This document shows, one piece after another, positions 51,353 to 64,000 of a stretch of 64,000 nucleotides of DNA. A program made the position numbers and the translations under genes. Below the pieces are notes generated by a model. The model saw nothing but the letters and a program-made list of their open reading frames with translations, was not told where the DNA came from and searched no databases. Source of the stretch: a virus (Duplodnaviria; Heunggongvirae; Uroviricota; Caudoviricetes); IMG/VR virus record IMGVR_UViG_3300017917_002560, positions 74,096 through 138,095 of that record. One strand, written 5' to 3'. Each line of letters begins with the position of its first letter. Within the stretch, counting starts at the first letter, position 1.

Positions 51353-51361
51353 AGTGGCCTT

Positions 51362-51691: not shown

Positions 51692-53251
51692 TTAGGTCAA
51701 ATTTAATTGTGAATACAATGCCTGTTTGTATTCCTGAATTTTTTTCTCTTTTTTTAGAGTAACACTGTGCCAATCAAATGTACTGACTGATTGATTTATA
51801 ACAGTCTTGGGATCAATGCCTAGGCTACTCATGTACAGTACATCATTGCTTCTTACTTTTAACAAATCTCGTTTTATACTTTCTTGATGGTTCTGACTTG
51901 CTAACATTTTACACTCGTCAAAAGAAGTTAGATCGTTTTCCCATACCAATGACTTGAGCTCGTTGTCAAAGCCAGTTATCCTGTATCCGTATTTTTTGTA
52001 ATTTTTGTCAATGTCACTGCTGAATATCGCAGTTTTAGAAGACCTAATTATCAAGGGATGACAATACCAAACATCAAGTCCAGTTTCGTTATTAACAAGC
52101 TGTTCGTGAGTTTGTTTTATACTGTTGACATCTTCGTAAGGAAGCCCAAAAATAAATCCAGCATGCAACGTTACTGAATTACCGTATTGGTTTTTAATTT
52201 TTTTAACAGTTGCAATTAACTTTTCTCGACTACCGCCCTTGCCAATAAACGACCCAGCTTGTTTGTTAAACGTTTCAATGCCAAAGAAGTTTGCAATACA
52301 TCCGCTACCATACAAAAGATTTATGGTTTCAGGATCAGCAGCCAATAAATCTAGTCTAACATAAGCCCAATATTCTAACTTAAATGGTAGCTTTTTTGAT
52401 ATGTCGTAAATGGCTTGTAGTTTTTCCTTTGAGTCGTTAAATGTGTCGTCAGTAAACACATAACGTGTGGTTCCAAAGCGTTCGTAGTTGTCAATTAGTT
52501 CTGCATACAACACATCTGTGTGTTTGATGTAGTCATTTTTTTCTTGCCGTTTAACGGAAATGAACAGAACTTGCATTGAAAAATACAGCCGCGCCCAATT
52601 TCAATTGGAAGAGTTTCGTTGGGCAACACAATATCGTGTTCATGATATTTCATTTGTGTCCCAACAAAGTCGTAGCCTTTTGCAGTGGGGTCATCAATTA
52701 CAGTAAATTTAAACACACTCTTTCTACTGTTATTAAGAGCATCTCCAAATGCCAGGTGCCGTGCCAAATTGACAGCAGATATATCAGCTAGGCCCTGCAC
52801 AACATAATCGTAATCTGAATTGAAGTCAATGTCTTCTGCATCCGGTCCGCCTAGTACAATTTTACAATTAGGCGATATAGAACGAATCAGTTGTTTGATA
52901 ACTGTATTATATTTTTTTCCGTGGGGCAAAAAAGAACCGGATTCTTTAGGAGAGAATTTTATGCCGCCTTTTTCCCAGTGATTTTCGGCATTGTCAATTA
53001 TTTGTGCGTTATCTACTCCTTGATAAAAAATTGAATTGAATCCAATATACAAGGTTTTATCACTCACAGCAGAATTAAGTATTTGGATAATCTCTTCTAT
53101 AGAAAAAATATGTAAATGGTTGATCACCAACACTTCAAATCCTTCATTGCGCAGAGAATCAGCGACCTTGGTGACTCCCAATAGCCGTTGCAAAAACAGC
53201 GGATGACTGTAATCGGTCATCAGGATGATATTGTGCTTGGTTTTATCAAAC
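51692..53251 (-). CDS. Cobalamin-binding radical SAM protein, apparently split by a frameshift near 52495-52576
   Basis: Upstream ORF (52495..53251/53280) has B12-binding-like N-terminus and IGRGCIFQCKFCSF (CxxxCxxC); downstream ORF (51692..52576) continues rSAM fold; frames overlap 82 nt around an A/T homopolymer. Confidence 0.5.
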
Positions 53252-53296
53252 ATGTTAATATGTATATGCGTTTGAATCAAAAAAAATATTTATTGT

Positions 53297-53378
53297 TGGT
53301 ACCCCTGCTCGGATTCGAACCGAGAAACCGCGGCACACCTTTTGAGAGTGCTGACTTTACCAATTTGTCCACAGGGGC
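53297..53378 (-). tRNA. tRNA-Leu(CAA)-like, long variable arm, CCA encoded
   Basis: Hand fold: T arm ctcgg/attcgaa/ccgag, anticodon loop cucaaaa, acceptor 6 WC+1 GU. Confidence 0.5.
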
Positions 53379-53379
53379 G

Positions 53380-53453
53380 TGGTGGGTTCGACAAGAATTG
53401 AACTTGTGTCTTTGCCATGTCAAAGCAACGTTCTACCATTGAACTACGAACCC
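53380..53453 (-). tRNA. tRNA-Val(GAC)
   Basis: T loop uucaauu, anticodon loop uugacau, perfect acceptor. Confidence 0.55.
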
Positions 53454-53459
53454 AATGAG

Positions 53460-53537
53460 TGGTCGGAATAGCAAGATTCGAACTTGCGACCCCTGGTCCC
53501 CCAGACCAGTGCGCTAACCAGACTGCGCTATACTCCG
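53460..53537 (-). tRNA. tRNA-Pro(GGG)
   Basis: Anticodon arm ctggt/cccccag/accag, D stem gcgc. Confidence 0.55.
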
Positions 53538-53622
53538 TTATATGGCAGGCCCTTCAGGAATTGAACCTTCGACTCCGGCGGTTGGAATGCCGAGAGATCT
53601 GCCAGAGTGAGCCCATAAAACT

Positions 53623-53820
53623 TTATCGACGTTTGCGCCAAGTGTATTCTACACCGTCAGGGCACACACCGTCCTTGATACTATCGGCACCAAAGTGCCC
53701 TACAATTTCCATTCCGTTACCACGAATGGTAACAAAACAATCTAAAACTTTAGCTAGATCCATTGCGGCTTGTAAATCTATTACTTCGGTTTCTTTTTCG
53801 CCGCATACAACACAATACAT
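53623..53820 (-). CDS. Hypothetical small protein (65 aa) within tRNA island
   Basis: ORF between tRNA groups. Confidence 0.35.
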   Translation of the reverse strand: MYCVVCGEKETEVIDLQAAMDLAKVLDCFVTIRGNGMEIVGHFGADSIKDGVCPDGVEYTWRKRR

Positions 53821-54057
53821 TTATTTTTCTTCGTCTCTCTTCAACAACAATGAATTTGCAAACAATCCGGTTTCGCCAGGGCGTGTAGCTGTAAACTATC
53901 GACACAGGGTAGAGCTTACTTCATCCTGCAATAGATAATCCTTGACACCGGAAACAGTCCGGGACCTCTCATCCCAGCAACTGATCCATAGAAGATGCGC
54001 ATTACTGCACAGAGCCTCAAGGGGTATTGCCCCTGCACGAGTCCTTGCTTGCAAAAC

Positions 54058-54140
54058 TGGTGCCCAGGGAGGGACTCGAACCCTCACGGTTTCCCGCCGG
54101 ATTTTGAGTCCGGTGCGTCTACCTATTCCGCCACCTGGGC
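54058..54140 (-). tRNA. tRNA-Leu(CAA), class II
   Basis: Perfect anticodon stem ccgga/tccgg with loop cucaaaa; 11-nt variable arm cgg-gaaa-ccg. Confidence 0.6.
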
Positions 54141-54144
54141 AATT

Positions 54145-54219
54145 TGGTGGGCCCACTAGGAATTGAACCTAGACTCAAGCGATTATGAGTCGCCTGCTTT
54201 ACCATTAAGCTATAGGCCC
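54145..54219 (-). tRNA. tRNA-Met or Ile2 (CAU)
   Basis: Anticodon loop cucauaa; 1-72 paired so elongator-type. Confidence 0.55.
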
Positions 54220-54226
54220 AAAACTT

Positions 54227-54478
54227 TTATTTCTTTGCATCCATTCCGTCTAACACCCAGACTTGAATTGCGTCTAGCTTGTTGGGAGATTCAAATACTT
54301 CTGGGCATTTATGAGCCACTCGATCCAAGTCCCAAGAACCTGGATAATGACGCAACACTGCCAGGGCACGTTGTCGAACAACTTTGGGAACCCGCGGCGT
54401 CTTGGCGGGATTGCAAAGGTCCATCAAGAACTGCTCTGCTGACCTTACTGCTCGATAACGTTCGTCCGGTAGTGTCAT
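54227..54478 (-). CDS. Hypothetical protein (83 aa)
   Basis: ORF downstream of promoter 54506. Confidence 0.45.
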   Translation of the reverse strand: MTLPDERYRAVRSAEQFLMDLCNPAKTPRVPKVVRQRALAVLRHYPGSWDLDRVAHKCPEVFESPNKLDAIQVWVLDGMDAKK

Positions 54479-54505
54479 GATCCTTGCTCTTTAAACTATA
54501 GATGT

Positions 54506-54534
54506 ATTATAGCAATCTAGTATTTAATTGTCAA
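54506..54534 (-). promoter_or_regulatory. Early sigma70 consensus promoter TTGACA-17-TATAAT
   Basis: ctggTTGACAattaaatactagattgcTATAATac. Confidence 0.6.
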
Positions 54535-54659
54535 CCAGTGCTGTGCTTCTTGCTTGTGGGTCAGTATGCATTTTCTAAAAAAGAATCGCTGTAAAACGTT
54601 CTGTTGGTGAAAAATGCATACTTTGGTTTACCTTTTCTGCAAACAACAGTATTACCTTT

Positions 54660-54736
54660 TGGTACCCTGGACGGGACTCGAACCCGTAGAACCTGCGACC
54701 TCAACGCAGTGTGTCTGCCAATTCCACCACCGGGGC
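54660..54736 (-). tRNA. tRNA with anticodon GAG (Leu-type) but class I (short variable arm) shape
   Basis: Perfect anticodon stem ctgcg/cgcag, loop uugaggu; acceptor has one C-A mismatch. Confidence 0.45.
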
Positions 54737-55078
54737 TTATAACCAATACTCTCGACGTGGCTTGCTTTCAATCATGACCTCATGGTCGGGATCACGCTGG
54801 TAACGATGCAGTTCTCGACGTGCTCGCACTTTGTACGGCTTTTGTGAGAACTCGCGATGAAACCAACTGGGCCCACGGTAGTTCATCCAGTGATCTTTTT
54901 TGTCACTGTGGAACTCGGCTAGCTTTTTACGACCTTCTTTACTGTGCGCATCGATTCGCTGATACGCCCAGCGATATGGAGCAGTACGAACTAGCTCTCT
55001 CAACACGTCAGCTTCAAGCCAACGATGTTTCTTAAAACGATATGTACGACTCATCTTTCCTCCTATTGTGATAGTCAC
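54737..55078 (-). CDS. Hypothetical basic protein (113 aa)
   Basis: ORF ending exactly at tRNA 5' end. Confidence 0.45.
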   Translation of the reverse strand: MTITIGGKMSRTYRFKKHRWLEADVLRELVRTAPYRWAYQRIDAHSKEGRKKLAEFHSDKKDHWMNYRGPSWFHREFSQKPYKVRARRELHRYQRDPDHEVMIESKPRREYWL

Positions 55079-55119
55079 AATCGGTGGAAAGTCCTTTTGT
55101 TTTTCTTGATATACATGTT

Positions 55120-55494
55120 TTACCTTACTGCTCGTGCTCGAGCATCAATTACATCATTCATGTCGCATTTGACAACGACATTAGTGTATGTATCAACAAA
55201 TCCGCTGGCATGATCTGTTACGCGGTTGTCGGGTTCGTGATATGTTCTAATACGTTCCTGCCCAGCAAGATACCGTTGTGTATCTTCGTGAAAGTGGGCC
55301 TGCACTCTGCTCAAACAAGTAATGTATGCCGCACGTCGATTGTCTTCTCGACTGCGACTGTTAGTACCATTGGCTTGAATGCCAGTGGGCTCGTGTATGC
55401 AACGGCAACAGTTTTGATGCTTGTTGCGATGCTGTCCGCCTTTTCCTGTGCCCGAGAACCACTCAAAGCGGAATTGGTCTTCTGTGATTTTCAT
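55120..55494 (-). CDS. RF-1/ArfB-like GGQ-domain peptidyl-tRNA hydrolase
   Basis: SGTGKGGQHRNKHQNCCRCIHEPTGI matches class I release factor/ArfB GGQ domain (SGxGGQHVNK...HxPTGI). Confidence 0.65.
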   Translation of the reverse strand: MKITEDQFRFEWFSGTGKGGQHRNKHQNCCRCIHEPTGIQANGTNSRSREDNRRAAYITCLSRVQAHFHEDTQRYLAGQERIRTYHEPDNRVTDHASGFVDTYTNVVVKCDMNDVIDARARAVR

Positions 55495-55502
55495 GGCATT
55501 CC

Positions 55503-55883
55503 TTACAGTAGTGGTAGAGTGCCTGTAACAGCGTCTACGCGGTCTTCACGGTCTGGGCCAACAGCAACGGCGGTATAGGTTTTTACACCACCAAACTCTG
55601 TGAGCCCAGCGTCTTGGATTAAGCTAGCAACAAGTCCTGCCGCTAGTGCCTGATTGTGTATGGCCAACAGCTCTTGTTCACTGTTGACATATACACAGAT
55701 TTTTTTAAAACGTCCTGTAAGCCAAGGGCGCACACGATCGTCCATTTTTAATTCCAGCATGTCATTCTTTACTTGACACAGACCTAGGATAGCACCCATG
55801 GAGGCATGAGCACCTTGTGCTACCATTTTGCCTTTGCGCATGTTTAAATCTTTGCGTAACACTATGACTTGTTTGTGTTCCAT
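55503..55883 (-). CDS. PTH2-family peptidyl-tRNA hydrolase
   Basis: KQVIVLRKDLNMRKGKMVAQGAHAS resembles PTH2 N-terminal block. Confidence 0.65.
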   Translation of the reverse strand: MEHKQVIVLRKDLNMRKGKMVAQGAHASMGAILGLCQVKNDMLELKMDDRVRPWLTGRFKKICVYVNSEQELLAIHNQALAAGLVASLIQDAGLTEFGGVKTYTAVAVGPDREDRVDAVTGTLPLL

Positions 55884-55897
55884 GTGTGTCTCCTTGT

Positions 55898-55973
55898 TGG
55901 TGCCGCCCCCAGGGATCGAACCTGGTTCCTCGGTGCTTCAAACCGGTGCTATGACCACATCAGCTAAAGCGGC
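55898..55973 (-). tRNA. tRNA-Phe(GAA)
   Basis: Anticodon loop uugaagc. Confidence 0.55.
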
Positions 55974-55978
55974 ATGTT

Positions 55979-56053
55979 TGGTACATCCTCACGGTTTCGA
56001 ACCGCGGACCCTTTCCGTGTAAAGGAAACGCTCTACCCCTGAGCTAAGGATGC
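55979..56053 (-). tRNA. tRNA-Val(UAC)
   Basis: Anticodon arm tttcc/gtgtaaa/ggaaa. Confidence 0.6.
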
Positions 56054-56058
56054 GTTAA

Positions 56059-56150
56059 TGGTACTCCCGGGGAGAGTCGAACTCCCATTAGCGGCTTATC
56101 TAGCACTTACCCGTTATAAGCGGGCCGTTTTACCATTAAACTACGGGAGC
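56059..56150 (-). tRNA. Class II tRNA (89 nt) with apparent anticodon UAU; isotype unclear
   Basis: Good acceptor, D arm gttt/taccatt/aaac, T arm; 22-nt variable region; anticodon loop cuuauaa. Confidence 0.4.
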
Positions 56151-56158
56151 CTTGTTGT

Positions 56159-56234
56159 TGGTTGCGGGGCTTGGATTTGAACCAAGGATGGCAAAGGCTT
56201 ATGAGACCTCGCTGGTGACCGGACCCTCCCCGCG
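56159..56234 (-). tRNA. Initiator tRNA-fMet(CAU)
   Basis: 5' CGCGGGG with C1·A72 mismatch, T loop UUCAAAU, anticodon loop cucauaa, as in bacterial tRNAfMet. Confidence 0.65.
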
Positions 56235-56241
56235 CCAGTTG

Positions 56242-56808
56242 TTACAGTAGGCCCACTTCCTTGAGTGAACTTACTATGTCTTCGGTCAACTCAATTTCTG
56301 TGCGAACATTGAGTTCAAGAATTTCGTCGTTGAGCTTTTGTTTTTGCTTCTTGAGGTGCAGTACTAGAGCCTTGAATGTGTCAATTTGTTCTTGACGCAG
56401 TACACCAGTGTTCACAGTGTCACCGTAGCCGTAAATGCGGCTCTTGGCTTCAACATTGCGAAGCTTTTCCAGCTTGCCGTTGATGAGACCCAGTGCTTCT
56501 TGCACATCGGCCTTGGCTAGCTCAGTCATGTGACCAATGCGCTTGTCCAAGTAGGCGCATTCAGCCAACTTGTCTGTGACACCGCACTGTGCATTGGCCA
56601 TGCCAATCATGCTACGAATGCGATACAAGATACGTGTGAGTCGGTCACGTTGGTCGTCACGTGCCACCAACTGAGTGTTGAGAGCAAACAACACCACTTC
56701 TGCGTCCTCAAACTCGTTGAGTGTAGCAGTGGATTTGATTTCAATACCACGGATGAACTCTTGGATTACAGTTTGCAGGGCATTGGCTTTACGCAGAGTG
56801 ATTTTCAT
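56242..56808 (-). CDS. Hypothetical coiled-coil protein (188 aa)
   Basis: ORF downstream of promoter 56829. Confidence 0.5.
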   Translation of the reverse strand: MKITLRKANALQTVIQEFIRGIEIKSTATLNEFEDAEVVLFALNTQLVARDDQRDRLTRILYRIRSMIGMANAQCGVTDKLAECAYLDKRIGHMTELAKADVQEALGLINGKLEKLRNVEAKSRIYGYGDTVNTGVLRQEQIDTFKALVLHLKKQKQKLNDEILELNVRTEIELTEDIVSSLKEVGLL

Positions 56809-56828
56809 TTTGAATTCCTTAAAAAATA

Positions 56829-56857
56829 ATTATATGCTGAATCAATGTGTTAGTCAA
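56829..56857 (-). promoter_or_regulatory. Early sigma70-like promoter TTGACT-17-TATAAT
   Basis: ttgTTGACTaacacattgattcagcaTATAATtatt. Confidence 0.55.
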
Positions 56858-57142
56858 CAAAAAACGGATAAAGAAACGGCAAGTAAATAGCCGGACAACA
56901 TGCAACAGTCAATCGCCCCAGAACACTAATCTCGAGCTAACAACTATCAAAAAACAGAGGACTCAATATCTCCAAGGATCAACAAACAGGGCTATTACGC
57001 CGGACTACCTTGGATCTCTGAGTCACGGAGGCTGTGCAAGCCAATTGTCAGTAATTCCATTTTCACATGGATTACCGTTTTGCTACTCCTCATCTCCGCT
57101 TCTTCAACCGGTTGGTTTTGCAAAAACCAACAAAACAAAACT

Positions 57143-57217
57143 TGGCTCCCCAGCGTGGGCTCGAACCACGGACCAAAGGATTAACAGTCCTCTACTCTAC
57201 CTCTGAGCTACTAGGGA
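57143..57217 (-). tRNA. tRNA-Asn(GUU)
   Basis: Anticodon loop cuguuaa, acceptor 6 WC+1 GU, G73. Confidence 0.65.
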
Positions 57218-57241
57218 ATGGGTTAACACAGTATTTGTCCT

Positions 57242-57270
57242 ATTATACTCCCTGTGTTATGGAGAGTCAA
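57242..57270 (-). promoter_or_regulatory. Early sigma70-like promoter TTGACT-17-TATAAT driving tRNA-Asn
   Basis: TTGACTctccataacacagggagTATAATagg. Confidence 0.55.
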
Positions 57271-57276
57271 CTGTTA

Positions 57277-57708
57277 TTATAAAAAAGCGTACTCGTAATT
57301 GACCGATTCTTCGTTGTCGCTCAGCACAGTTGCGCCGTTTTTCAAGTGGAATCGTCGAGCCATTTCGGTCTTGGGACTCAAGGTCACAAAACGTGTGATT
57401 TCAGGAAACTGTCTACGTATCTCTTCTACAGTGGCACGTAACAGTTCTGCGCCGGCACCAGGAGCATAACTCCATATGGTGTAGAAAACCGCAGTGTTAG
57501 GGTTCTCTGCGTCACCTAAGTCGCTGACTCGAGTAGGAACTCGATCCAGCAGGTTCACGCAGACCATGGCACGTGGGCGGTCTTCAACTAGAGCACTGAC
57601 AAATCGATTCTTACCAACCCTGAACTCTCTAGAGATTTCTGGTCTAACAGGATCATCTTTGACGTACTCCAGTAGTGGATCTAGTGGGTTCGCTACAAAC
57701 GTCAACAT
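57277..57708 (-). CDS. Hypothetical protein (143 aa)
   Basis: ORF. Confidence 0.45.
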   Translation of the reverse strand: MLTFVANPLDPLLEYVKDDPVRPEISREFRVGKNRFVSALVEDRPRAMVCVNLLDRVPTRVSDLGDAENPNTAVFYTIWSYAPGAGAELLRATVEEIRRQFPEITRFVTLSPKTEMARRFHLKNGATVLSDNEESVNYEYAFL

Positions 57709-57761
57709 AATATTTGTATATATCTCAGATGCTGAATTTTTGTATTACAGCAATATTACAA

Positions 57762-57837
57762 TGGAGCGGGTAGCGAGATTCGAACTCGTCTCTTGAGGTT
57801 TGGAAGACCGCCGTGCAACCGTAAACACTTTACCCGC
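57762..57837 (-). tRNA. tRNA-Gly(UCC)
   Basis: Anticodon loop cuuccaa, U73 discriminator, perfect acceptor gcgggta/tacccgc. Confidence 0.6.
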
Positions 57838-58131
57838 ATCTTAGTGAAACACTCTAAAGGTTTTCTTCCCGGGACCCAGATCCACCTTAAACTGGTCGAT
57901 GTTTTGTAGAATGTTTCATTAAGATGTTTAGCTACTCTCACCACAAGAGCCCTAAACTGGGTGGTTACCCCGTCCACGTTCTTTTCCATTTAGACGGGCA
58001 ATCGTCCCCGCCTTTGTGATTTCTCAAGTCGCCCATGTAAGCGGGCCTTGCAGTAGATCCAATGCACTGTGTCTTTTATGGTACAGACAATTGACCCCCG
58101 TTTACTAACGGCTACGGGATGCCGGGTTGTT

Positions 58132-58215
58132 TGGTGCCCCAGGGGAGACTCGAACTCCCACGCCTTTCGACAATGGCTTCTAAGACCATCGTGTCTACCA
58201 TTCCACCACCAGGGC
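58132..58215 (-). tRNA. tRNA-Leu(UAG), class II
   Basis: Anticodon loop cuuagaa, 13-nt variable region. Confidence 0.55.
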
Positions 58216-58239
58216 ATTTGTTATATTATAACAAACTCA

Positions 58240-58713
58240 TCAAGCATTTGCAACCTTTAATCCACGCATACGGTCAGCGGCATAGCTTGCGGCAAATGCG
58301 TCGGGCTTGACCATGGGAATAATGTTGCAAGTGCCTCGAATGTAACCAATGGCTTGTGCAATGACATTTGAACTCTTGTGCATATCGTTGGGGTTTAAGT
58401 CCAAATGCACTTCAACATGTCGTCCTTCAAGGACATCGGCTAATTTTAGATACAGTTCGCTGACTTTGTAAACTTCAGTCATCAAACGTGTGTTGGGTTT
58501 GTCAACTCGATCGTAATCGCGTTCTTTGGTAATCTCACCAAACAGTTTGCAACCATTGTTACCATTGACGTGAACAACGATGGCGGCTGTGTAGTAGGCC
58601 CAAAACTCTCCTCCGATCTTTACACGTTCGCTATCGCAACCAAGATACACACGAGTATCTGGGCTTTGTGCTAGAATAAATTCACGCACTACATCAATGT
58701 CAAACTTCTTCAT
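58240..58713 (-). CDS. Hypothetical protein (start MKKFDIDV)
   Basis: ORF between tRNAs; longer N-terminus to 58767 unlikely. Confidence 0.45.
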   Translation of the reverse strand: MKKFDIDVVREFILAQSPDTRVYLGCDSERVKIGGEFWAYYTAAIVVHVNGNNGCKLFGEITKERDYDRVDKPNTRLMTEVYKVSELYLKLADVLEGRHVEVHLDLNPNDMHKSSNVIAQAIGYIRGTCNIIPMVKPDAFAASYAADRMRGLKVANA

Positions 58714-58734
58714 GATTACCTCTCGTAAAAATCT

Positions 58735-58808
58735 TGGCATCCCACCAGGGACTCGAACCCCGACCAACGGTTTTGGAGACCGCTATGCTGCCATTACACC
58801 AGCGAGAT
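58735..58808 (-). tRNA. tRNA-Trp(CCA)
   Basis: Anticodon loop cuccaaa, D arm gugu/aauggca/gcau. Confidence 0.6.
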
Positions 58809-58820
58809 ATTTTGTATATA

Positions 58821-58894
58821 TGGTAGCCAGTACAGGTAACGATCCTGTGTCGCACGATTATCAGTCGTGTGCTCTACCTTTGAGCTAACCGGCT
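58821..58894 (-). tRNA. tRNA-Ile(GAU) with unusual T loop AUCGUUA
   Basis: Perfect anticodon stem cacga/tcgtg, loop cugauaa. Confidence 0.6.
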
Positions 58895-58930
58895 ATGAAT
58901 TTTTGTGCAAGTTTTTAAAGAACAGCTTGT

Positions 58931-58959
58931 ATTATACAAGAATGTTGCTTTATGGTCAA
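58931..58959 (-). promoter_or_regulatory. Early sigma70-like promoter TTGACC-17-TATAAT driving tRNA-Ile block
   Basis: TTGACCataaagcaacattcttgTATAATac. Confidence 0.55.
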
Positions 58960-58962
58960 GCT

Positions 58963-59037
58963 TGGTGGTAAAGGTGAGATTCGAACTCACACCGGGCACC
59001 GTATGAAGGTGTTGCACAACCATTATGCTACTTTACC
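58963..59037 (-). tRNA. tRNA-Met or Ile2 (CAU), second elongator-type copy
   Basis: Anticodon loop uucauac, perfect acceptor ggtaaag/ctttacc. Confidence 0.55.
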
Positions 59038-59160
59038 ATATAAAAACATTTTCAATTTCAGTTCAATGCTGGCACAAAGAACCTTTCGCCACTGCCAGGT
59101 GACCGAAGAGATTACTCGCTCTAATTGCGAGGTCTGTCCGTCAAAAATGTTTTTATATGG
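59036..59160. repeat. 17-bp perfect inverted repeat (ccatataaaaacatttt / aaaatgtttttatatgg) enclosing a 91-nt hairpin-rich spacer between two tRNAs
   Basis: Arms 59036-59052 and 59144-59160; right arm includes CCA of tRNA-Lys, left arm abuts 5' end of tRNA(CAU). Confidence 0.7.
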
Positions 59161-59235
59161 TAGGAGCACTGGGATTCGAACCCAGACCTGGCGGATTAAA
59201 AGTCCGCTGTGCTAAACCGTTGACACTATACTCCC
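59158..59235 (-). tRNA. tRNA-Lys(UUU)
   Basis: Perfect anticodon stem gcgga/tccgc, loop cuuuuaa. Confidence 0.65.
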
Positions 59236-59365
59236 GTTTGTCTTTCATCTTACTATCGCGTCTTAGAGCTTTGTTGCTCTTGCGGTGCGAGCCCGCCTTC
59301 CGTTTGCTTGCCAGTACGGCAAATATGTTACGAGGTTTCACTTCGTTTCTCCTTAAAAAATAAAT

Positions 59366-59444
59366 TGGTCCGAGTAGAAGGATTCGAACCTTCGATCTCC
59401 TGCTCCCAAAGCAGGCGGATTAAACCAGACTTTCCTACACTCGG
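59366..59444 (-). tRNA. tRNA-Pro(UGG)
   Basis: Perfect anticodon stem cctgc/gcagg, loop uuuggga. Confidence 0.6.
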
Positions 59445-59450
59445 ATATTA

Positions 59451-59525
59451 TGGTGGACCGTACCGGGATCGAACCGGTCCTTAAGGCTTGCAAAGCCCTC
59501 GTGCCCCCAACAACACTTACAGCCC
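59451..59525 (-). tRNA. tRNA-Ala(UGC)
   Basis: Anticodon loop uuugcaa; G3:U70 wobble present. Confidence 0.65.
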
Positions 59526-59540
59526 ATAATACTAACTAAC

Positions 59541-59615
59541 TGGCCCGGCGTAAGGGAATCGAACCCCTATTCGCACTTTAGAAGAATGCTGTCCTATCCA
59601 TTGAACGAACGCCAG
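59541..59615 (-). tRNA. tRNA-Arg(UCU)
   Basis: Anticodon loop cuucuaa. Confidence 0.55.
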
Positions 59616-59622
59616 AATAACT

Positions 59623-59698
59623 TGGGGTGTCCAACCGGTATCGATCCGGTACTACCGCTTTCACAGAGCAGTGTGCAGGCCACTACACTATGGACACC
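59623..59698 (-). tRNA. tRNA-His(GUG) with encoded G-1 and C73
   Basis: Anticodon loop cugugaa; extra 5' G opposite C73; T loop AUCGAUA. Confidence 0.65.
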
Positions 59699-59867
59699 AT
59701 TGATAAATTTGAGTAAATGCTACAGGATTCGAACCTGTACCTGCGTCCGCCTTCGCCGCTTACTAAGTCTGCAAACTTTTCGTCGGGTACTACCTTCTGC
59801 TGTGCTTGCCAGTACACCACGCAACCTGTCATAGTTCATTGCAGTGCCCTATGAGCAGTCTCAAAAT

Positions 59868-59943
59868 TGGCATCCCCACCAGGAGTCGAACCTGGGACTA
59901 GACCTTCGCAGGGTCTAATGATTTCCTATTTCACCACAGGGAT
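59868..59943 (-). tRNA. tRNA-Arg(GCG)
   Basis: Perfect anticodon stem agacc/ggtct, loop cugcgaa. Confidence 0.5.
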
Positions 59944-59950
59944 ATAAACT

Positions 59951-60027
59951 TGGCCGGCCCTGAGGGATTCGAACCCCCAACAATCAGTTTCGAAGACTGA
60001 TAGTCTATCCAATTGACGTAAAGGCCG
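59951..60027 (-). tRNA. tRNA-Arg(UCG)
   Basis: Perfect anticodon stem tcagt/actga, loop cuucgaa. Confidence 0.55.
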
Positions 60028-60087
60028 AATTGTTATAAGGTGCTCGTGTTGGCGCTTGAATCCGCGATAGCCCCTCTCTTCACGGCT

Positions 60088-60900
60088 GGTCCTTGCGCTG
60101 TCTAGAATTGGCAAGTATTTCAGTTGTTCCGCTGTAGCTACTACACAAGCAAAATTACTATTCTGAAACACACTATGCCACGCTTTGAACCTGGACTCTT
60201 AGTAATGTGTTTTAGAATAGTGCTAACGCTGAGATTACACGTTAGCCATAAGCACCTCTAGCATTATAGTCCGCCTTGCGAGCAAACCTTCTCTAGACAT
60301 CCACATAAGCCCTTGCGGTACCTACGTCTGCTTACAGCATCGCCGTTTTTAAAGACAGGCAGTAGTCTTGTCGCCATATGCTATTCTACGCTATCTACTC
60401 CGTTGACCTTGCGAGCCATTCACAGTCGCTAAACCGTTACGAAACTTCCAGCATAAACCAATTTCACCTTGCGAGCTACGTTGGACTTGATTCACTTGCG
60501 TGTCAAGTATTAGATGCTTTTCACATATGACCGAGTCAGTCTTTGCATTTTATTGTTAGAAGGAGTCGAACCTTCAGTCTATTCTTTAACAGAGAATTGG
60601 CCTACCATTAGCCTATAACGAACCTACTGCGATGTGCTGACTCAGTTGCCGCATACTCTTTTGGAATACACGATACAACACACCACGTACCTTTTGCCTC
60701 GCGAGCTACTCAGTAGTCTTTCGCGACCAATGTAACAACGTTTCGCAACGTGTCCCATCAACCACTAAAACTGCATACAAGCCCTTGGGAGCGACCCCTC
60801 GGACACGTACACTACCCTTTCTCATACCAGTTGACTGATTGGTTTGTATGGAAGTCAGCACCACCTGTTACTTTTCATTGCCCCGTGTTCCTTGCGGCAC
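60088..60900. repeat. Dispersed copies (>=8) of CCTTGCGAGC-like motif in ~1.1-kb noncoding stretch
   Basis: Copies at ~60090, 60274, 60311, 60415, 60475, 60697 (palindromic CCTCGCGAGC), 60783, 60890; irregular spacing. Confidence 0.55.
60551..60622 (-). tRNA. tRNA-Asn(GUU)-like, probable pseudogene (two acceptor mismatches, no CCA)
   Basis: Good T arm, anticodon arm attct/ttaacag/agaat, D arm; acceptor 5/7. Confidence 0.35.
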
Positions 60901-61276
60901 GTCGAACAATGTTCTTTCCTCATACATCAGCTTCGCTGTTACATCCACCGGTCTTATCAGTGAACGCTACCTCACGGTAGTGAGCAGGCTTGTCTAAACA
61001 GACCATTACTGGCGGAGTTATGTAGGCATACCTCCTTTGGCTGTGTCACCACAGTTATCTTTCATACACGGCAAGCCGTGTATAGGATGTTAAACCACCC
61101 TTGAAATCTTTTGTCTAATAGACATACTACTGCACACTCACAGGAATCGAACCTGCCAACCACACCAATGGGCGAAGCTGTTTCCGCAACATCGGCCTGC
61201 GCATTTAGCCTTTGTGTGCATGAGTATATCTACTATTTTTTAAAGAACGCTTTAGTTAATTTCTAACTAAGCATGT

Positions 61277-61305
61277 ATTGTAGCATCACATGAATAATGT
61301 GTCAA
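61277..61305 (-). promoter_or_regulatory. Early sigma70 consensus promoter TTGACA-17-TACAAT at head of tRNA/noncoding block
   Basis: gtggTTGACAcattattcatgtgatgcTACAATac. Confidence 0.55.
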
Positions 61306-61306
61306 C

Positions 61307-61382
61307 CACAAAGACCTGGTACACCGTATGGGAATCGAACCCATCTTACCAACGTGAAAGGCTGGTGTCCTAAACCGATAGA
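61307..61382 (-). tRNA. tRNA-Glu(UUC)
   Basis: Anticodon loop cuuucac. Confidence 0.55.
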
Positions 61383-61559
61383 CGAACGGTGCATTGTATA
61401 GGTTTTTGAGAGCCTAACTATCCTCCTGGGAGGACTCGCTAGATTGTCTCGAATAGTCAAGTTTAACCAACCGACTTCAGTCATACTGTAGTGTCAACAC
61501 AGTCAACCCCACTGTGCCTAGACTGGCAGGGACTCTAAACTATCGTCTATCTCAAAACT

Positions 61560-61636
61560 TGGAGCACAGGGTGGGACTCAAACCCACGAATCAACGGATT
61601 TGCAATCCGCGCCATTAGTCGCTCTGGTACCTGTGC
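61560..61636 (-). tRNA. tRNA-Cys(GCA)
   Basis: Anticodon loop uugcaaa, U73, perfect acceptor; T loop UUUGAGU (U56). Confidence 0.55.
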
Positions 61637-61642
61637 ATTGAC

Positions 61643-61717
61643 TGGAGCAGGATATCGGGTTCGAACCGATGACATTCTCGTTGGCAACGAGACATTCTAC
61701 CACTGAATTAATCCTGC
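61643..61717 (-). tRNA. tRNA-Gly(GCC)
   Basis: Perfect anticodon stem tctcg/cgaga, loop uugccaa, U73, perfect acceptor. Confidence 0.65.
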
Positions 61718-61775
61718 AAATTTTAAAAAGCCTAGGGACTCAAGTCACGTCAGGAGTGGGTATAGGCTATATTAG

Positions 61776-61850
61776 TGGTGCCCCGGGGGTGAATCGAACA
61801 CCCGACCTCGGATTACAAAACCGATGTTTTACCACTAGAACTAACGGGGC
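61776..61850 (-). tRNA. tRNA-Thr(UGU)
   Basis: Anticodon loop uuuguaa. Confidence 0.55.
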
Positions 61851-61859
61851 AAATTAACT

Positions 61860-61949
61860 TGGCCGAGAGTCAGGGAGTCGAACCCTGTCACCGTGTTTCC
61901 ACGATGTACGGATTAGCAATCCGCTGCCTTACCATCCGGCCCACTCTCG
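61860..61949 (-). tRNA. tRNA-Ser(GCU), class II
   Basis: Anticodon loop uugcuaa, G73, 20-nt variable arm with cgug/cacg stem, 3-bp D stem. Confidence 0.65.
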
Positions 61950-61956
61950 AAAGTCT

Positions 61957-61985
61957 ATTATATATGTTAGTTGAACAAGTGTCAA
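61957..61985 (-). promoter_or_regulatory. Early sigma70 consensus promoter TTGACA-17-TATAAT immediately upstream of tRNA-Ser(GCU)
   Basis: TTGACActtgttcaactaacataTATAATag. Confidence 0.55.
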
Positions 61986-61994
61986 CAATAAAAT

Positions 61995-62086
61995 TGGTGG
62001 AAGCGGTGAGATTCGAACTCACGGACCCATTTCTGAGCCGACAGTTTTCAAGACTGTTGCAATAAACCGGACTCTGCCACACTTCC
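61995..62086 (-). tRNA. tRNA-Ser(UGA), class II
   Basis: Perfect anticodon stem acagt/actgt, loop cuugaaa, 18-nt variable arm. Confidence 0.55.
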
Positions 62087-62092
62087 ATATCT

Positions 62093-62168
62093 TGGTCGGG
62101 CATCCTGGAGTCGAACCAGGTTCTCTCGGCTTAAGAGGCCGGACTTCACCACGCAAAGTTTATCCCCG
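62093..62168 (-). tRNA. tRNA-Lys(CUU)
   Basis: Anticodon loop cucuuaa; 4-bp anticodon stem. Confidence 0.5.
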
Positions 62169-62173
62169 AAATT

Positions 62174-62248
62174 TGGTGGAGACCGAGGGAGTTGAACCCT
62201 TCTAGACATTGTGCCTGCCAGGCGCAACCGTAGCCCGCTACTGCCCCC
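62174..62248 (-). tRNA. tRNA-Ala(GGC)-like, aberrant fold (possible pseudogene)
   Basis: T arm and G3:U70 acceptor present, anticodon loop cuggcag, but D arm/variable region do not fold canonically. Confidence 0.35.
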
Positions 62249-62332
62249 ATTAATGAAGCGTACTAGACTGGATCGCCCATCACCTAGTCCAGACGGTGTA
62301 CGTATATGCGAATTAGTACGCTTCATTAATGG
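62247..62332. repeat. 19-bp perfect inverted repeat (ccattaatgaagcgtacta / tagtacgcttcattaatgg) enclosing a 48-nt hairpin-forming core between two tRNA-like genes
   Basis: Arms 62247-62265 and 62314-62332; right arm contains CCA of downstream tRNA-like gene; inner gactgga/tccagac sub-hairpin. Confidence 0.7.
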
Positions 62333-62408
62333 CTCCGAGTATGAGAATCGAACTCATCTAACCATTGATTAACAGTCAAGCCCATGCACCTTGCTCGGGT
62401 TTCTCGGA
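62330..62408 (-). tRNA. tRNA-like gene with Asn-type loop (cuguuaa), degenerate D arm and acceptor
   Basis: Perfect T arm atgag/aatcgaa/ctcat; other arms poor. Confidence 0.3.
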
Positions 62409-62416
62409 ATAGAAAT

Positions 62417-62491
62417 TGGCATCCTGCACGGGTATCGATCCCGTTCCTTCACCTTGAAAGGGTGATGATCTAGCCAGTAATCTAGCAGGAT
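62417..62491 (-). tRNA. tRNA-Glu(UUC), second copy, T loop AUCGAUA
   Basis: Perfect anticodon stem tcacc/ggtga, loop cuuucaa, perfect acceptor. Confidence 0.55.
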
Positions 62492-62497
62492 AAAAAT

Positions 62498-62571
62498 TGG
62501 CACCGGTACCAGGGCTCGAACCTAGAACGACTGAGTCAAAGTCAGTTGTGTTACCATTACACCATACCGGA
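62498..62571 (-). tRNA. tRNA-Gln(UUG)
   Basis: Perfect anticodon stem actga/tcagt, loop cuuugac; 1-72 mismatch as in bacterial tRNA-Gln. Confidence 0.6.
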
Positions 62572-62799
62572 ACAGAAATGAATTTGAGAGTTGTGCCACC
62601 ATCGTTATTGGCACCATTCACCTATTTGCATAAAGCCCGGGCTAGGACTCGGTACGTTACTTGAGATTCATCCAGCCTGTGTGCCATCAGACACCCTGAT
62701 CTTCCGATCAGTCGGGCCTCGAACCCGCGACCTTTTACTATATCAGTAGTTCGAACATACCTTTATAGCGTGATTTCACTTGCTAACACTCTCAAAACT

Positions 62800-62889
62800 T
62801 GGTGGATGCGGTAGGAGTTGAACCTACACAGTCTTATTTGTATGCGGGCGGGTTACAGCCGCTTGAGCTCGCCAATGCTCAGCACATCC
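62800..62889 (-). tRNA. tRNA-Tyr(GUA), class II
   Basis: Anticodon loop cuguaac, long variable arm, D stem gagc/gctc. Confidence 0.6.
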
Positions 62890-62894
62890 ATGTT

Positions 62895-62968
62895 TGGTGC
62901 CCCATGACAGAATCGAACTGCCGTACCCGGATTACAAAACCGGTGTAATACCATTATACTAATAGGGC
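62895..62968 (-). tRNA. tRNA-Thr(UGU), second copy
   Basis: Anticodon arm ccgga/ttacaaa/accgg. Confidence 0.55.
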
Positions 62969-62973
62969 ATGTT

Positions 62974-63058
62974 TGGTGCTCCGAGCCAGAATCGAACTGG
63001 CACGCCCGAGGGCGAGAGATTTTAAGTCTCTTGTGTCTACCTATTCCACCATCGGAGC
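62974..63058 (-). tRNA. tRNA-Leu(UAA), class II
   Basis: Perfect anticodon stem agaga/tctct, loop cuuaaaa; 13-nt variable arm cgccc-ucg-gggcg; perfect acceptor. Confidence 0.65.
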
Positions 63059-63065
63059 AAAAACT

Positions 63066-63140
63066 TGGCGACTCGTGGGAGAATCGAACTCCCGTCTCCG
63101 GATAGACAATCCGGGATAATGACCATTATATGAACGAGCC
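63066..63140 (-). tRNA. tRNA with anticodon GUC (Asp-type) but unusual U37
   Basis: Perfect anticodon stem ccgga/tccgg, loop uugucua. Confidence 0.45.
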
Positions 63141-63146
63141 TAAACT

Positions 63147-63223
63147 TGGCGCACCGTAGGGGACTTGAACCCCTGGCCTCATGCGTGACAGGCATGCGAT
63201 CTAACCAACTGATCTAACGGTGC
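63147..63223 (-). tRNA. tRNA-Asp(GUC)
   Basis: Perfect anticodon stem catgc/gcatg, canonical loop cugucac, perfect acceptor. Confidence 0.65.
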
Positions 63224-63809
63224 GTAATCTTCCTTTGACCCAACCATCTGGCATAGGGTCAGTTTGTTTAATCTTGCGTTCGTGTGTGTTATTATTGATC
63301 CACATCGAACCTAAATTTACTTGCTTTGCTCGATTAGAAAGTTCTTGCTGTAAAACAGAATCTTTGAATACGCTAACTCTGCCATTTGCGTATTGCTGTT
63401 TGTTTAGAGCAGATTTTCTCTCCGATTCGGCATTGCGAAATTCTTCGTCGTTTTCAAGTCGGGATGCGTATGTTTGGCCGCCTTTGAGGTATTGCTTGGC
63501 TTTGTTGTTTTGTCCTGTTTTGTTTAGGTAATCAAAACCGCCTGAGCCACCGCGACGCAAATTATACACATCATCACGCGATAAAAAGTCTTCGGTTACA
63601 ACTTCTTTTTCACGCTTGAACATTTCATCGCTATTCTCAAAAATTTCAAGAATAGTCTTCTCAAAGTTTTCAATGCCATGCTTGTTGATAGCGGCACGTA
63701 TTACTTTACCTGAACCCATGTAACCATCATTCATGTCAGATGTTTTATGAACTCCGACATAAATTTTGCCATTCACTTTGTTTTTGATTTGATACATGTA
63801 GTAAAACAT
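63201..63809 (-). CDS. GIY-YIG homing endonuclease
   Basis: N-terminal YMYQIKNKVNGKIYVGVH...YMGSG GIY-YIG motifs; 3' end overlaps 5' part of tRNA-Asp by ~23 nt. Confidence 0.7.
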   Translation of the reverse strand: MFYYMYQIKNKVNGKIYVGVHKTSDMNDGYMGSGKVIRAAINKHGIENFEKTILEIFENSDEMFKREKEVVTEDFLSRDDVYNLRRGGSGGFDYLNKTGQNNKAKQYLKGGQTYASRLENDEEFRNAESERKSALNKQQYANGRVSVFKDSVLQQELSNRAKQVNLGSMWINNNTHERKIKQTDPMPDGWVKGRLRTVRSVG

Positions 63810-63885
63810 TTTGTTCTCCTACATTTATTTATCAAATGTGCGGCGTATATGGGTAATAGGCTGATGTGCGTCCATGAACACTTTG

Positions 63886-63969
63886 AGACCAAATTGGTGT
63901 ACGTTACGGGATTCGAACCCGCACCTCAAGGTTTTTAGGCCCTGCGTCGTGATGCCCTAACATTTTGAC
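63886..63969 (-). tRNA. tRNA-like gene (G3:U70 acceptor, class II length), isotype unresolved
   Basis: T arm acggg/attcgaa/cccgc and acceptor pair; interior not folded confidently; a further tRNA 3' end appears to begin at 63976 and runs off the window. Confidence 0.35.
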
Positions 63970-64000
63970 CAAACGCACATAATTGGTGGAGTGTAGCAGA

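Follow-up and report, generated by a model that had tools for sequence, protein, structure and literature searches.

An ORF-free stretch of a phage tRNA island very probably encodes a GOLLD RNA with a tRNA-like linker module

The window, by which we mean the whole stretch of DNA analysed, covers 64,000 nucleotides of a Caudoviricetes virus record (IMG/VR record IMGVR_UViG_3300017917_002560, positions 74,096 to 138,095). It encodes phage structural and homing-endonuclease genes together with 39 tRNAs, the latter on the minus strand, which is the strand of the GOLLD RNA gene described below. The phage tRNA genes around that gene share its orientation. Within the tRNA island, positions 60028 to 61130 had been described in an initial annotation as ORF-free and as carrying a dispersed motif, and three readings were put forward: a graveyard of decaying tRNA genes, an array of protein-binding sites, or a long structured RNA. 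The stretch indeed holds no credible ORF, the longest being one of 81 amino acids that overlaps a tRNA and one of 76 amino acids on the opposite strand.

Upstream of the stretch, a promoter-like site of the sigma-70 type is found on the minus strand at 61305-61277, in agreement with the promoter initially marked at 61277. It consists of TTGACA, a 17-nt spacer, a TG and TACAAT, with 11 of 12 consensus matches. Most relatives likewise have the pattern TTGACA-N17-TACAAT 5' of the GOLLD RNA, at a distance from the 5' hairpin of about 190 nt in some and about 20-40 nt in others. Further downstream on the minus strand, another strong promoter first appears at 58959. Judged from its sequence and position, the promoter at 61305-61277 probably drives the transcription unit holding the GOLLD RNA.

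Between promoter and RNA lies a tRNA-derived leader cassette (minus strand, approximately 61131-61222). It has a stem of 7 bp resembling an acceptor stem, its T arm carries GGUUCGAUUCC, and the arm on its anticodon side is long and aberrant. A lone T-arm/acceptor fragment had been reported at 61132-61156; the T arm is present there, but it belongs to this larger tRNA-like fold, which has a folding energy of -39 kcal/mol (z = -2.9). Neither ARAGORN nor Rfam calls the cassette at normal thresholds, and ARAGORN run on 61131-61222 with introns allowed and thresholds relaxed gives no confident tRNA. In relatives the same slot is occupied by variable cassettes within a long-range helix, some of which are called as class-II tRNAs. 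The cassette may serve as a processing signal.

Rfam models were scanned against positions 50000-64000 with E-values up to 1, and against 59900-61400 with E-values up to 10. This Infernal/Rfam search, which the initial annotation had proposed as a check, proved decisive. The minus strand at 60226-60686 matches the GOLLD family (RF02032) with 207.7 bits, compared with a gathering score of 150, at an E-value of about 1e-58 and over model positions 1-416 of 416, so that the match is not truncated. This segment is the conserved 3' domain of the RNA. A long-range pseudoknot of the model (positions 134-143 with 289-298) forms nine of its ten pairs, GGUCAUAUGU with GCAUAUGGCG; the sequence departs from the consensus, and the pairing is therefore maintained by compensation. 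Relative to the model, a 21-nt hairpin, gguuugcucgcaaggcggacu, is inserted at about positions 369-370, and three relatives (L005, L097 and L106) share this insert, cap included.

The 5' domain (minus strand, 60687-61105, about 419 nt) lies outside every Rfam model. Its 5' boundary was set by the conservation profile and by the position of the promoter in relatives, and its structure was predicted by RNAalifold on an alignment of 44 relatives (alignment A1), giving 26 helices. The prediction comprises 114 pairs, 78 of which show compensatory changes on both sides. In the alignment 98.6% of the cells are paired, compared with 82% in shuffled and about 40% in slid alignments, and none of 500 shuffles matched any of the pairing measures. 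GNRA-type caps are found on H5 (GUGA), H9 (GUAA), H12 (GUGA), H19 (GCAA) and H26 (CGCGA), and the GUGGUG loop of H20 is invariant. Helices H2-H4 (minus strand, 61063-61084) correspond to a strong hairpin, acacggcaagccgtgt, that had been noticed before; the hairpin exists, but at 61067-61082 and not at 61066-61081, one base off. Its H4 cap is CUUG, with UUCG in many relatives, and the two alternate across the alignment, while all five pairs of H2 show compensatory changes.

At the other end, conservation runs beyond the end of the Rfam model to about 60157. This clade-specific 3' extension (minus strand, 60157-60222) is a long hairpin of about 18 bp with a fold z-score of -2.9 and a tip variable in sequence and length. 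In close relatives the stem is conserved and the tip inserts vary; there is almost no covariation, because the stem is nearly invariant, and a single compensatory change was seen (L215). In distant relatives an intrinsic terminator takes the place of the hairpin, and in L097 the next tRNA begins 2 nt past the hairpin, which probably protects or defines the 3' end of the RNA. The spacer from here to the next tRNA, a tRNA-Arg (UCG), at 60028-60156, is not conserved and falls outside the structured RNA. Its identity to relatives is 0.07-0.35, it folds no better than shuffled sequences (z = -0.14), and no minus-strand promoter was found in it.

Relatives were collected from IMG/VR by pattern scanning. 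With the 14-mer CGTGTAATCTCAGC, 6 of 120 loci were real and the rest mostly chance matches; two more specific sequence patterns recovered the clade, which comprises at least 85 IMG/VR contigs, many of jumbo-phage size. The phages X1 and phiCbK are further relatives. No close phage relatives were found by BLASTN with the region and megablast with 24 kb against 50,697 phage records, searches that gave tRNA matches and one 153-nt match in Xanthomonas phage X1 and nothing else. A tBLASTN search with a 565-aa ORF gave matches at about 21% identity only. Across 62 non-redundant relatives the block 61105-60157 is conserved at identities of 0.6-0.9, compared with 0.07-0.35 in the flanks.

The 5' and 3' halves are found together in all full-length relatives. 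The Rfam 3' domain scores 179 bits in X1 and 165 bits in phiCbK, and directly upstream, in the right orientation, both are matched by the profile of the 5' domain built from alignment A1 (E-values of 1.6e-4 for X1 and 5e-6 for phiCbK). The same profile found nothing in env-38, a GOLLD RNA of known structure. Global alignment to the 5' half of env-38 scored no higher than shuffled sequences (z = 1.0), which is a weak test, as the 3' halves themselves reach only z = 2.35; short elements such as a hairpin with a GUGGUG loop are all that can be seen in common between the two 5' halves. Since primary-sequence similarity to the env-38 5' domain is not detectable, oligomeric contacts and stoichiometry could differ.

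These data also bear on whether the stretch might belong to another class of large RNA, such as ROOL, a group I or group II intron, RNase P RNA, tmRNA or a novel look-alike of GOLLD. ROOL, too, adjoins phage tRNA islands (PMC12286853), and a 5' half outside all Rfam models leaves room for such a reading. Against it stand the co-occurrence of the two halves, the profile matches upstream of GOLLD 3' domains in X1 and phiCbK, and the permissive scans above, in which the region matched GOLLD and tRNA and nothing else, ROOL included among the models without a match. We give another RNA class practically no chance. A protein-coding gene, an intron, RNase P RNA and tmRNA were each rejected as identities, there being no credible ORF and no such Rfam match.

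The motif that first drew attention, CCTTGCGAGC, reads GCUCGCAAGG on the RNA strand and forms a short hairpin with a GNRA-type loop cap (C-GCAA-G). On the RNA-sense strand of 60157-61105, CGCAAG occurs six times where 0.26 copies are expected from the rest of the window, and YCGCRAGR six times where 0.05 are expected (Poisson P about 3e-11), an enrichment of about 100-fold; YCGCRAGR has no copy on the opposite strand of the region. The enrichment reported in the initial annotation is thus real, but its count of eight or more copies needs up to three mismatches. Just three exact copies exist (starting at 60274, 60407 and 60467), and two more have at most one mismatch (60697 and 60783). The copy at 60783-60792 is a stem strand and not a loop, and one at 60091-60100 falls outside the conserved RNA.

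Most of the copies could be placed in the structure, all on the minus strand. GCUCGCAAGG at 60467-60476 caps a hairpin already contained in the Rfam consensus (ggcuCGCAAggcc, model 192-204); at 60407-60416 it caps another hairpin of the 3' domain (model approximately 254-266), and at 60274-60283 the inserted 21-nt hairpin. Degenerate copies are ACCGCAAGGG at 60311-60320, in a GCAA-capped 3'-domain hairpin (model approximately 340-356), ACACGCAAGU at 60494-60503, capping a 3'-domain hairpin (model approximately 160-185), and GCCGCAAGGA at 60890-60899, in H18/H19 of the 5' domain with its GCAA tetraloop. The pairs of H18 covary strongly (for example GC 14, CG 11, UA 10 and AU 8), and the H19 loop in relatives is GCAA, GAAA or GUAA. 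The copy at 60696-60706, GCUCGCGAGGC, is H26 of the 5' domain, in which pairs 498-500 with 506-508 covary (UA in 30 sequences, CG in 13 and AU in 1). It had been singled out as a perfect palindrome, CCTCGCGAGC; the whole copy is not palindromic and only its core, CTCGCGAG, is.

If an early phage protein or a protein of the host bound the motif at the DNA level, this would account for its irregularly spaced repetition downstream of a strong promoter and for the palindromic core of one copy. Such an array of binding sites is very improbable here. The motif is strictly strand-specific (six copies versus none), every loop-type copy is flanked by pairing, covarying bases, one copy belongs to a GOLLD consensus drawn from unrelated organisms, and the palindromic variant is not conserved, the H26 cap being CGCAA, within CGCAAG, in most relatives. 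A CRISPR-like array had already been excluded, and we concur: the copies are 10 nt long, spaced irregularly at 27-190 nt, and located inside a covarying RNA structure.

Together, the Rfam match and the very strong covariation in the half outside the Rfam model bear out the third of the initial readings, a long structured RNA. We conclude with high confidence that the ORF-free stretch is one minus-strand GOLLD RNA gene (RF02032) of about 950 nt, running from about 61105 to about 60157. GOLLD is a previously described family of giant structured non-coding RNAs, to which the RNA of the window adds another member.

Inside the 3' domain, in the linker after its first hairpin, ARAGORN calls a tRNA-Asn (anticodon GUU) on the minus strand at 60551-60622, within GOLLD model positions of approximately 66-135; the same arrangement is found in relatives. 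The coordinates are those of a tRNA-Asn-like pseudogene in the initial annotation. The call as tRNA-Asn-like holds, but with 60.9 bits against the Rfam tRNA model (RF00005) the element is a well-formed cloverleaf, and in this clade it is a selected tRNA-like module instead of a pseudogene. Five of the seven acceptor-stem pairs form, U1.U72 and C3.A70 being mismatched, CCA is not encoded, and the GC content is 37.5%. In conservation the module equals the GOLLD core, with identities of 0.67-0.85. Among 39 distinct module sequences the D, anticodon and T stems are paired in 37-39, with several pair types, which indicates selection and not decay. The anticodon loop C-U-N-U-U-A-A is likewise conserved, with U33 and A37 kept.

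This bears on the reading of the stretch as neutral debris of old tRNA genes. Defective tRNA pieces are certainly present: the linker element itself, with its two acceptor mismatches and missing CCA, and the leader cassette, with a good T arm and an aberrant body. A further degenerate tRNA-like element lies at 59698-59867 and fits the same idea. Neutral debris would, however, hardly retain a block of 950 nt at the identities given above, far exceeding those of its flanks, nor show massive compensatory covariation in a 5' domain, match a curated RNA family over its full length, or keep the linker stems paired. For the core of the stretch the graveyard is refuted, and as an account of the whole it is extremely unlikely; decay does describe the degraded acceptor stem of the linker tRNA and the upstream cassette.

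A different question is whether the GOLLD RNA carries a genuine tRNA-Asn in its linker, stored in the cage and freed by RNase P/Z ('inhibited storage'), an idea raised for the embedded tRNA-Phe of Mycolicibacterium (PMC12990946). The cloverleaf score of the module and the conserved U33 and A37 would suit such a tRNA. We compared the linker tRNAs, called by ARAGORN in 48 of 63 relatives, with 959 free-standing tRNAs on the same contigs. A full 7-bp acceptor stem is present in 6 of the 48, which storage would allow for, compared with 828 of the 959; stems of just 4-5 pairs are found in 28 of the 48 and in 16 of the 959. CCA is absent from all 48, and their GC content is 0.405 compared with 0.532. 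At the wobble position the base varies between G, U and C, which shifts the nominal identity between Asn and Lys among close relatives. At 57143-57217, moreover, the phage encodes a canonical tRNA-Asn (GTT), complete with CCA and a perfect stem. Elsewhere, the linker tRNA of phiCbK aligns to positions 4-67 only of the tRNA model, and the tRNA-like gene embedded in the GOLLD gene of M. aubagnense was judged a pseudo-tRNA, with expression not detected (PMC6582537). Storage of a genuine tRNA is thus unlikely. In the clade of the window, sequence comparison identifies the linker element as a tRNA-like module in which selection maintains the elbow and the anticodon arm while the acceptor end has eroded; for this reason it is unlikely that the module can be released and charged as a tRNA.

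GOLLD RNAs occur in phages and prophages near tRNA islands and have a conserved 3' region and a variable 5' region, which in env-38 is residues 1-420; the linker lies inside a cage, a 14-mer (D7), and sometimes contains tRNAs (PMC12286853). Other members form 12-mers or 14-mers, and the tRNA-Phe of the Mycolicibacterium GOLLD is located in J13/15 (PMC12990946). The structural exemplars are env-38 (PDB 9MEE, 833 nt, 14-mer) and the GOLLD of Streptococcus agalactiae (PDB 9L0R, 12-mer). Like these, the RNA of the window has a 3' domain that matches at full length, a 5' domain of about 420 nt that folds separately, a linker after the first 3'-domain hairpin and many GNRA-type loops, and its gene has the orientation of the tRNA genes in the phage tRNA island around it. 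Unlike them, it has a total length of about 950 nt, the inserted 21-nt hairpin and a 3' end extended past P27 by a hairpin of about 66 nt, and its linker holds a tRNA-like module of 72 nt in place of the disordered 42-nt loop of env-38. A further trait of GOLLD is expression as a stable RNA that becomes more abundant in phage lytic growth; the corresponding sign in the window is a promoter-like site.

Cultured phages with a related GOLLD are phiCbK, a Caulobacter phage (JX163858) with GOLLD at 105042-105528 in a published alignment (PMC12286853), and Xanthomonas phage X1 (OQ427096), in which GOLLD is located at approximately 138.4-139.1 kb and is unannotated. Both are phages of about 200 kb and, like the window, carry GOLLD in a tRNA-rich region, with DNA identity to the window of about 70% at most and in short stretches only. 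The linker tRNA of phiCbK (Gly) resembles the module of the window in that its outer acceptor stem fails the tRNA model, and differs in its anticodon; the linker of X1 has no tRNA. The GOLLD gene of M. aubagnense (PMC6582537) likewise lies inside a large, horizontally acquired tRNA array adjoining an HNH endonuclease. The mycobacterial GOLLDs cited here are found on a bacterial chromosome or prophage, whereas the window is a lytic-type jumbo phage contig, and the tRNA identities differ; what the present work adds to those reports is a clade-wide, arm-by-arm survey of the linker. ROOL (Rumen-Originating, Ornate, Large) resembles GOLLD in being a phage and prophage RNA of tRNA islands that forms an RNA-only nanocage with a variable internal linker. 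It differs in sequence and fold, which are unrelated, in its length of about 580 nt, and in its intertwined 5' and 3' regions.

From the layout of the locus, the GOLLD RNA would be transcribed from the promoter at 61305-61277 within a polycistronic transcript of the tRNA array, and the leader, the 3' hairpin and the neighbouring tRNAs would provide processing points of the RNase P/Z type and end protection. By homology to the env-38 and S. agalactiae structures, the two halves are expected to fold as separate domains, and 12-14 copies would join by kissing loops and A-minor contacts of GNRA adenosines into a hollow RNA-only nanocage. Cage formation is here extrapolated from cryo-EM of these two distant homologues (PMC12286853, PMC12990946). 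As the linker faces the lumen of the cage in these homologues, the tethered tRNA-like module should do so too. The most likely role we infer is that of a cage expressed by the phage which, during lytic growth, either displays or sequesters modules shaped like tRNAs or captures a host factor related to tRNAs or ribosomes.

A more specific proposal, which we consider speculative and quite improbable as it stands, is that the lumen-facing module is a purpose-built tRNA mimic and not a tRNA, and that the 12-14 tethered decoys of each cage trap a host factor. Purifying selection acts on the L-shape core and on the anticodon stem-loop, the C-U-N-U-U-A-A loop of which is of the Lys/Asn type, while the acceptor end has been released from it. 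Such decoys could act by titrating or trapping a host factor that reads Lys/Asn-type anticodon loops, for example an anticodon nuclease or a tRNA-modifying enzyme. An anticodon nuclease of anti-phage defence is a possible recogniser of loops of this type.

For annotation, a known RNA gene accounts for an 'empty' gap of 1 kb within a phage tRNA island, and the same gap in the cultured Xanthomonas phage X1 is without annotation. From the clade come a deep alignment for the 5' domain, which Rfam leaves unmodelled, and a transcription context defined by promoter, tRNA-derived leader and 3' hairpin; these additions leave the classification as GOLLD RNA unchanged. Measured against free-standing tRNAs, the embedded tRNA comes out as a tRNA-like module that is kept by selection and whose acceptor stem has eroded, a quantitative argument against tRNA storage in its simple form. 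If the decoy proposal were true, GOLLD would be an RNA-only anti-defence device tied to the tRNA arsenal of the phage.

The minus strand of the window carries all 39 tRNA genes called by ARAGORN, and no credible ORF was found in the stretch 60028-61130 within the tRNA island. In an Rfam scan of positions 50000-64000 the only match other than tRNAs was GOLLD (RF02032), a giant structured non-coding RNA, which was found on the minus strand and spans 60226-60686. Its score of 207.7 bits (E about 1e-58) exceeds the gathering score of 150 bits, and the match covers model positions 1-416 of 416. In the RF02032 alignment 9 of the 10 pairs of the long-range pseudoknot of the family are retained, with a sequence unlike the consensus. 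The element at 61105-60157 is a GOLLD RNA, a member of a known family and of a class already described. The initial annotation had proposed an Rfam search and had offered three interpretations, a decaying tRNA graveyard, an array of protein-binding sites or a long structured RNA, of which the last is correct; what it had observed is real, and the details were partly right.

Relatives were gathered by three pattern scans of IMG/VR followed by nhmmer filtering. At least 85 IMG/VR loci are homologous to the region, many of them on contigs of 100-480 kb; a close cultured phage was not found at the DNA level. In a conservation profile of 62 non-redundant relatives, conservation is confined to a single block that spans about 61105 to about 60157 (identity 0.6-0.9). 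Positions 60028-60156 are poorly conserved (identity 0.07-0.35), and 61131-61316 has patchy occupancy. As the block has poorly conserved flanks, the RNA length is about 950 nt. It comprises, all on the minus strand, a 5' domain at 61105-60687, the 3' domain covered by the Rfam model at 60686-60226, and beyond the coverage of the model a 3' hairpin (60222-60157, about 66 nt).

A structured domain makes up the 5' half. RNAalifold, run on an alignment of 44 sequences with pairwise identity under 93%, predicted 114 pairs in 26 helices (H1-H26), and 78 of these pairs have changes on both sides. Standard pairs are formed in 98.6% of the cells, against 82% in shuffled alignments and 35-44% when partners were slid by 1-3 columns; the corresponding covariation scores are 0.514, 0.193 and 0.04-0.09, and none of 500 shuffles matched any observed measure. 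GNRA-type caps are found on H5 (GUGA), H9 (GUAA), H12 (GUGA), H19 (GCAA) and H26 (CGCGA), and the H20 loop GUGGUG is invariant. A strong hairpin pointed out in the initial annotation corresponds to H2-H4, where the cap is CUUG, and UUCG in many relatives.

The dispersed motif first described as CCTTGCGAGC reads GCUCGCAAGG on the minus strand, which gives a short stem with a C-GCAA-G loop, and in the RF02032 consensus itself one hairpin is capped by CUCGCAAGG. The RNA-sense strand of the 949 nt has 6 copies of CGCAAG (0.26 expected) and 6 of YCGCRAGR (0.05 expected, P about 3e-11), while the opposite strand of the region has no copy of YCGCRAGR. Seven motif copies are minus-strand hairpin caps, five in the 3' domain (60274, 60311, 60407, 60467 and 60494) and two in the 5' domain (60697 and 60890); a further copy at 60783 is a stem strand, and one at 60091 lies in the unconserved spacer. 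A similar density of the motif elsewhere would have refuted the initial annotation; within the window, the motif is instead enriched in the region. A DNA site, as in an array of protein-binding sites, is not supported, because the enrichment is strand-specific and most copies sit in hairpin caps; an element of RNA structure accounts for the motif.

The tRNA-Asn called by ARAGORN at 60551-60622 sits in the unstructured linker of the GOLLD model, after the first hairpin. It scores 60.9 bits on the Rfam tRNA model, has U1.U72 and C3.A70 mismatches, lacks CCA and has a GC content of 37.5%; in the free-standing phage tRNA-Asn at 57143-57217 the stem is perfect and CCA is encoded. Among 63 sequences (the window and 62 relatives), a linker tRNA was called by ARAGORN in 48, with anticodons Asn GTT (24), Lys TTT (9), Lys CTT (7) and others (8). 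All seven acceptor pairs are formed in only 6 of the 48, and just 4-5 pairs in 28, compared with 828 and 16 of 959 free-standing tRNAs on the same contigs; GC is 0.405 versus 0.532. Of 39 distinct linker sequences, 37-39 keep the D, anticodon and T stems paired, with several compensatory pair types; at acceptor positions, only some half to three quarters of the sequences form pairs. The anticodon loop of the modules is C-U-N-U-U-A-A, and in the profile the module equals the GOLLD core in conservation. A typical tRNA is rejected by the eroded acceptor stem and missing CCA. The "tRNA-Asn-like pseudogene" of the initial annotation was apt as to likeness and defects, but free decay is rejected by the conservation and the paired arms. 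Since the three arms and conservation are kept while acceptor pairing is relaxed, the linker element is a tRNA-like module under selection, in which the acceptor end has relaxed. Likewise, the linker tRNA-Gly of Caulobacter phage phiCbK (JX163858) matches only tRNA-model positions 4-67. The finding extends earlier remarks on a pseudo-tRNA inside the M. aubagnense GOLLD gene, expression of which was not detected (PMC6582537), on tRNAs sometimes contained in the GOLLD linker (PMC12286853) and on tRNA-Phe in J13/15 of Mycolicibacterium GOLLD (PMC12990946). One relative (L032) has two tRNAs with the amber-reading anticodon CUA, at 2835-2913 and 6491-6565 (+), one of them in the GOLLD linker.

A near-consensus promoter (11/12 matches) lies at 61305-61277 (-). 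In relatives the same TTGACA-N17-TACAAT promoter recurs at one of two distances: either some 20-40 nt ahead of the 5' hairpin, putting the start of the transcript at the position that corresponds to about 61100-61105, or about 190 nt upstream, as in the window. Between promoter and GOLLD 5' end, 61131-61222 (-) folds as a tRNA-derived cassette with an acceptor-like stem, a canonical T arm and an aberrant long arm in place of the anticodon arm. This leader slot holds differing cassettes in relatives, each within a long-range helix; those of two relatives (L137 and L198) are called by ARAGORN as class-II tRNA-Leu or tRNA-Pro. The 3' end is a plain intrinsic terminator in distant relatives and a long hairpin with a variable tip in the close clade, and in one relative (L097) the next tRNA begins 2 nt past the hairpin. 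As the interval from GOLLD to the next strong promoter, at 58959, yielded neither a minus-strand promoter nor a terminator-like site, we infer a polycistronic transcript, which would run from leader cassette through GOLLD to the downstream tRNAs and would be cut by tRNA-processing enzymes, with the 3' hairpin protecting the GOLLD 3' end. The tRNA island (51581-61985) has seven near-consensus sigma-70 promoters, each with 11-12 of 12 matches and each on the strand of the tRNAs (-). Their starts at 61985, 61305, 58959, 57270, 56857, 54534 and 51609 suggest that the island is divided into several transcription units.

Further minus-strand elements were observed in the island. Between tRNA-His and tRNA-Arg, a 170-nt gap (59698-59867) holds a degenerate tRNA-like element with an intact T arm and a weak acceptor stem, called by ARAGORN at a relaxed threshold only, with a 29-nt 'intron'. 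A probable class-II tRNA-Tyr(GTA) with encoded CCA at about 62800-62889 was missed by ARAGORN at the default threshold and gave a weak tRNA-Sec-like Rfam match (32 bits). Two tRNA-like elements absent from the ARAGORN list lie at 62333-62409 and 63898-63978, one an odd 65-nt fold (Rfam tRNA-Sec-like, 26 bits) and the other an Rfam tRNA of 39.9 bits. The tRNA-Ile(TAT) at 56059-56150 (92 nt, CCA encoded) has a long variable arm, unusual for an isoleucine tRNA. No tRNA or Rfam match was found in the 167-nt gap between tRNA-Glu and tRNA-Cys (61393-61559).

The window is clearly phage, with virion structural proteins, radical-SAM and carbamoyltransferase genes and homing endonucleases. A cluster at 12658-24364 (+), in which a Nol-like carbamoyltransferase (PHROG 1601, E 3e-90) is accompanied by two radical-SAM proteins, is a possible auxiliary module for modification or biosynthesis. 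The tRNA island contains a homing endonuclease ORF at 63201-63809 (-), and an HNH endonuclease (PHROG 1314, E 9e-111) lies upstream at 38652-39935 (-); mycobacterial tRNA arrays with GOLLD also have an HNH gene (PMC6582537).

In Xanthomonas phage X1 (OQ427096) the same gap of about 1 kb in the tRNA island, unannotated in the GenBank record, is filled by a GOLLD RNA (2323-~3150 (-) of the X1 locus L267), with a 3' domain of 179 bits (Rfam) and, unlike the window, a linker without tRNA. The 3' domain of phiCbK, a member of the published GOLLD alignment (PMC12286853), scores 165 bits; a permuted tmRNA (RF04321, 71 bits) lies at 1716-2034 (-) of the phiCbK locus L268, some 500 nt upstream of the GOLLD RNA and on the strand opposite to it. 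The 5'-domain profile matches X1 (E 1.6e-4) and phiCbK (E 5e-6) directly upstream of the 3' domain in the correct orientation. It did not match env-38, and global alignment to env-38 was no better than shuffles; in size the domain, about 419 nt, resembles the env-38 5' region, residues 1-420 in the cryo-EM paper (PMC12286853). GOLLDs of env-38 (14-mer; PMC12286853) and S. agalactiae (12-mer; PMC12990946) form RNA-only cages that enclose the linker and are held together through A-minor contacts and kissing loops, and by homology the window RNA would form a similar cage around its linker. To the known family this clade makes modest additions: a tRNA-like module in the linker whose acceptor stem is eroded, a leader cassette slot and a 3' hairpin.
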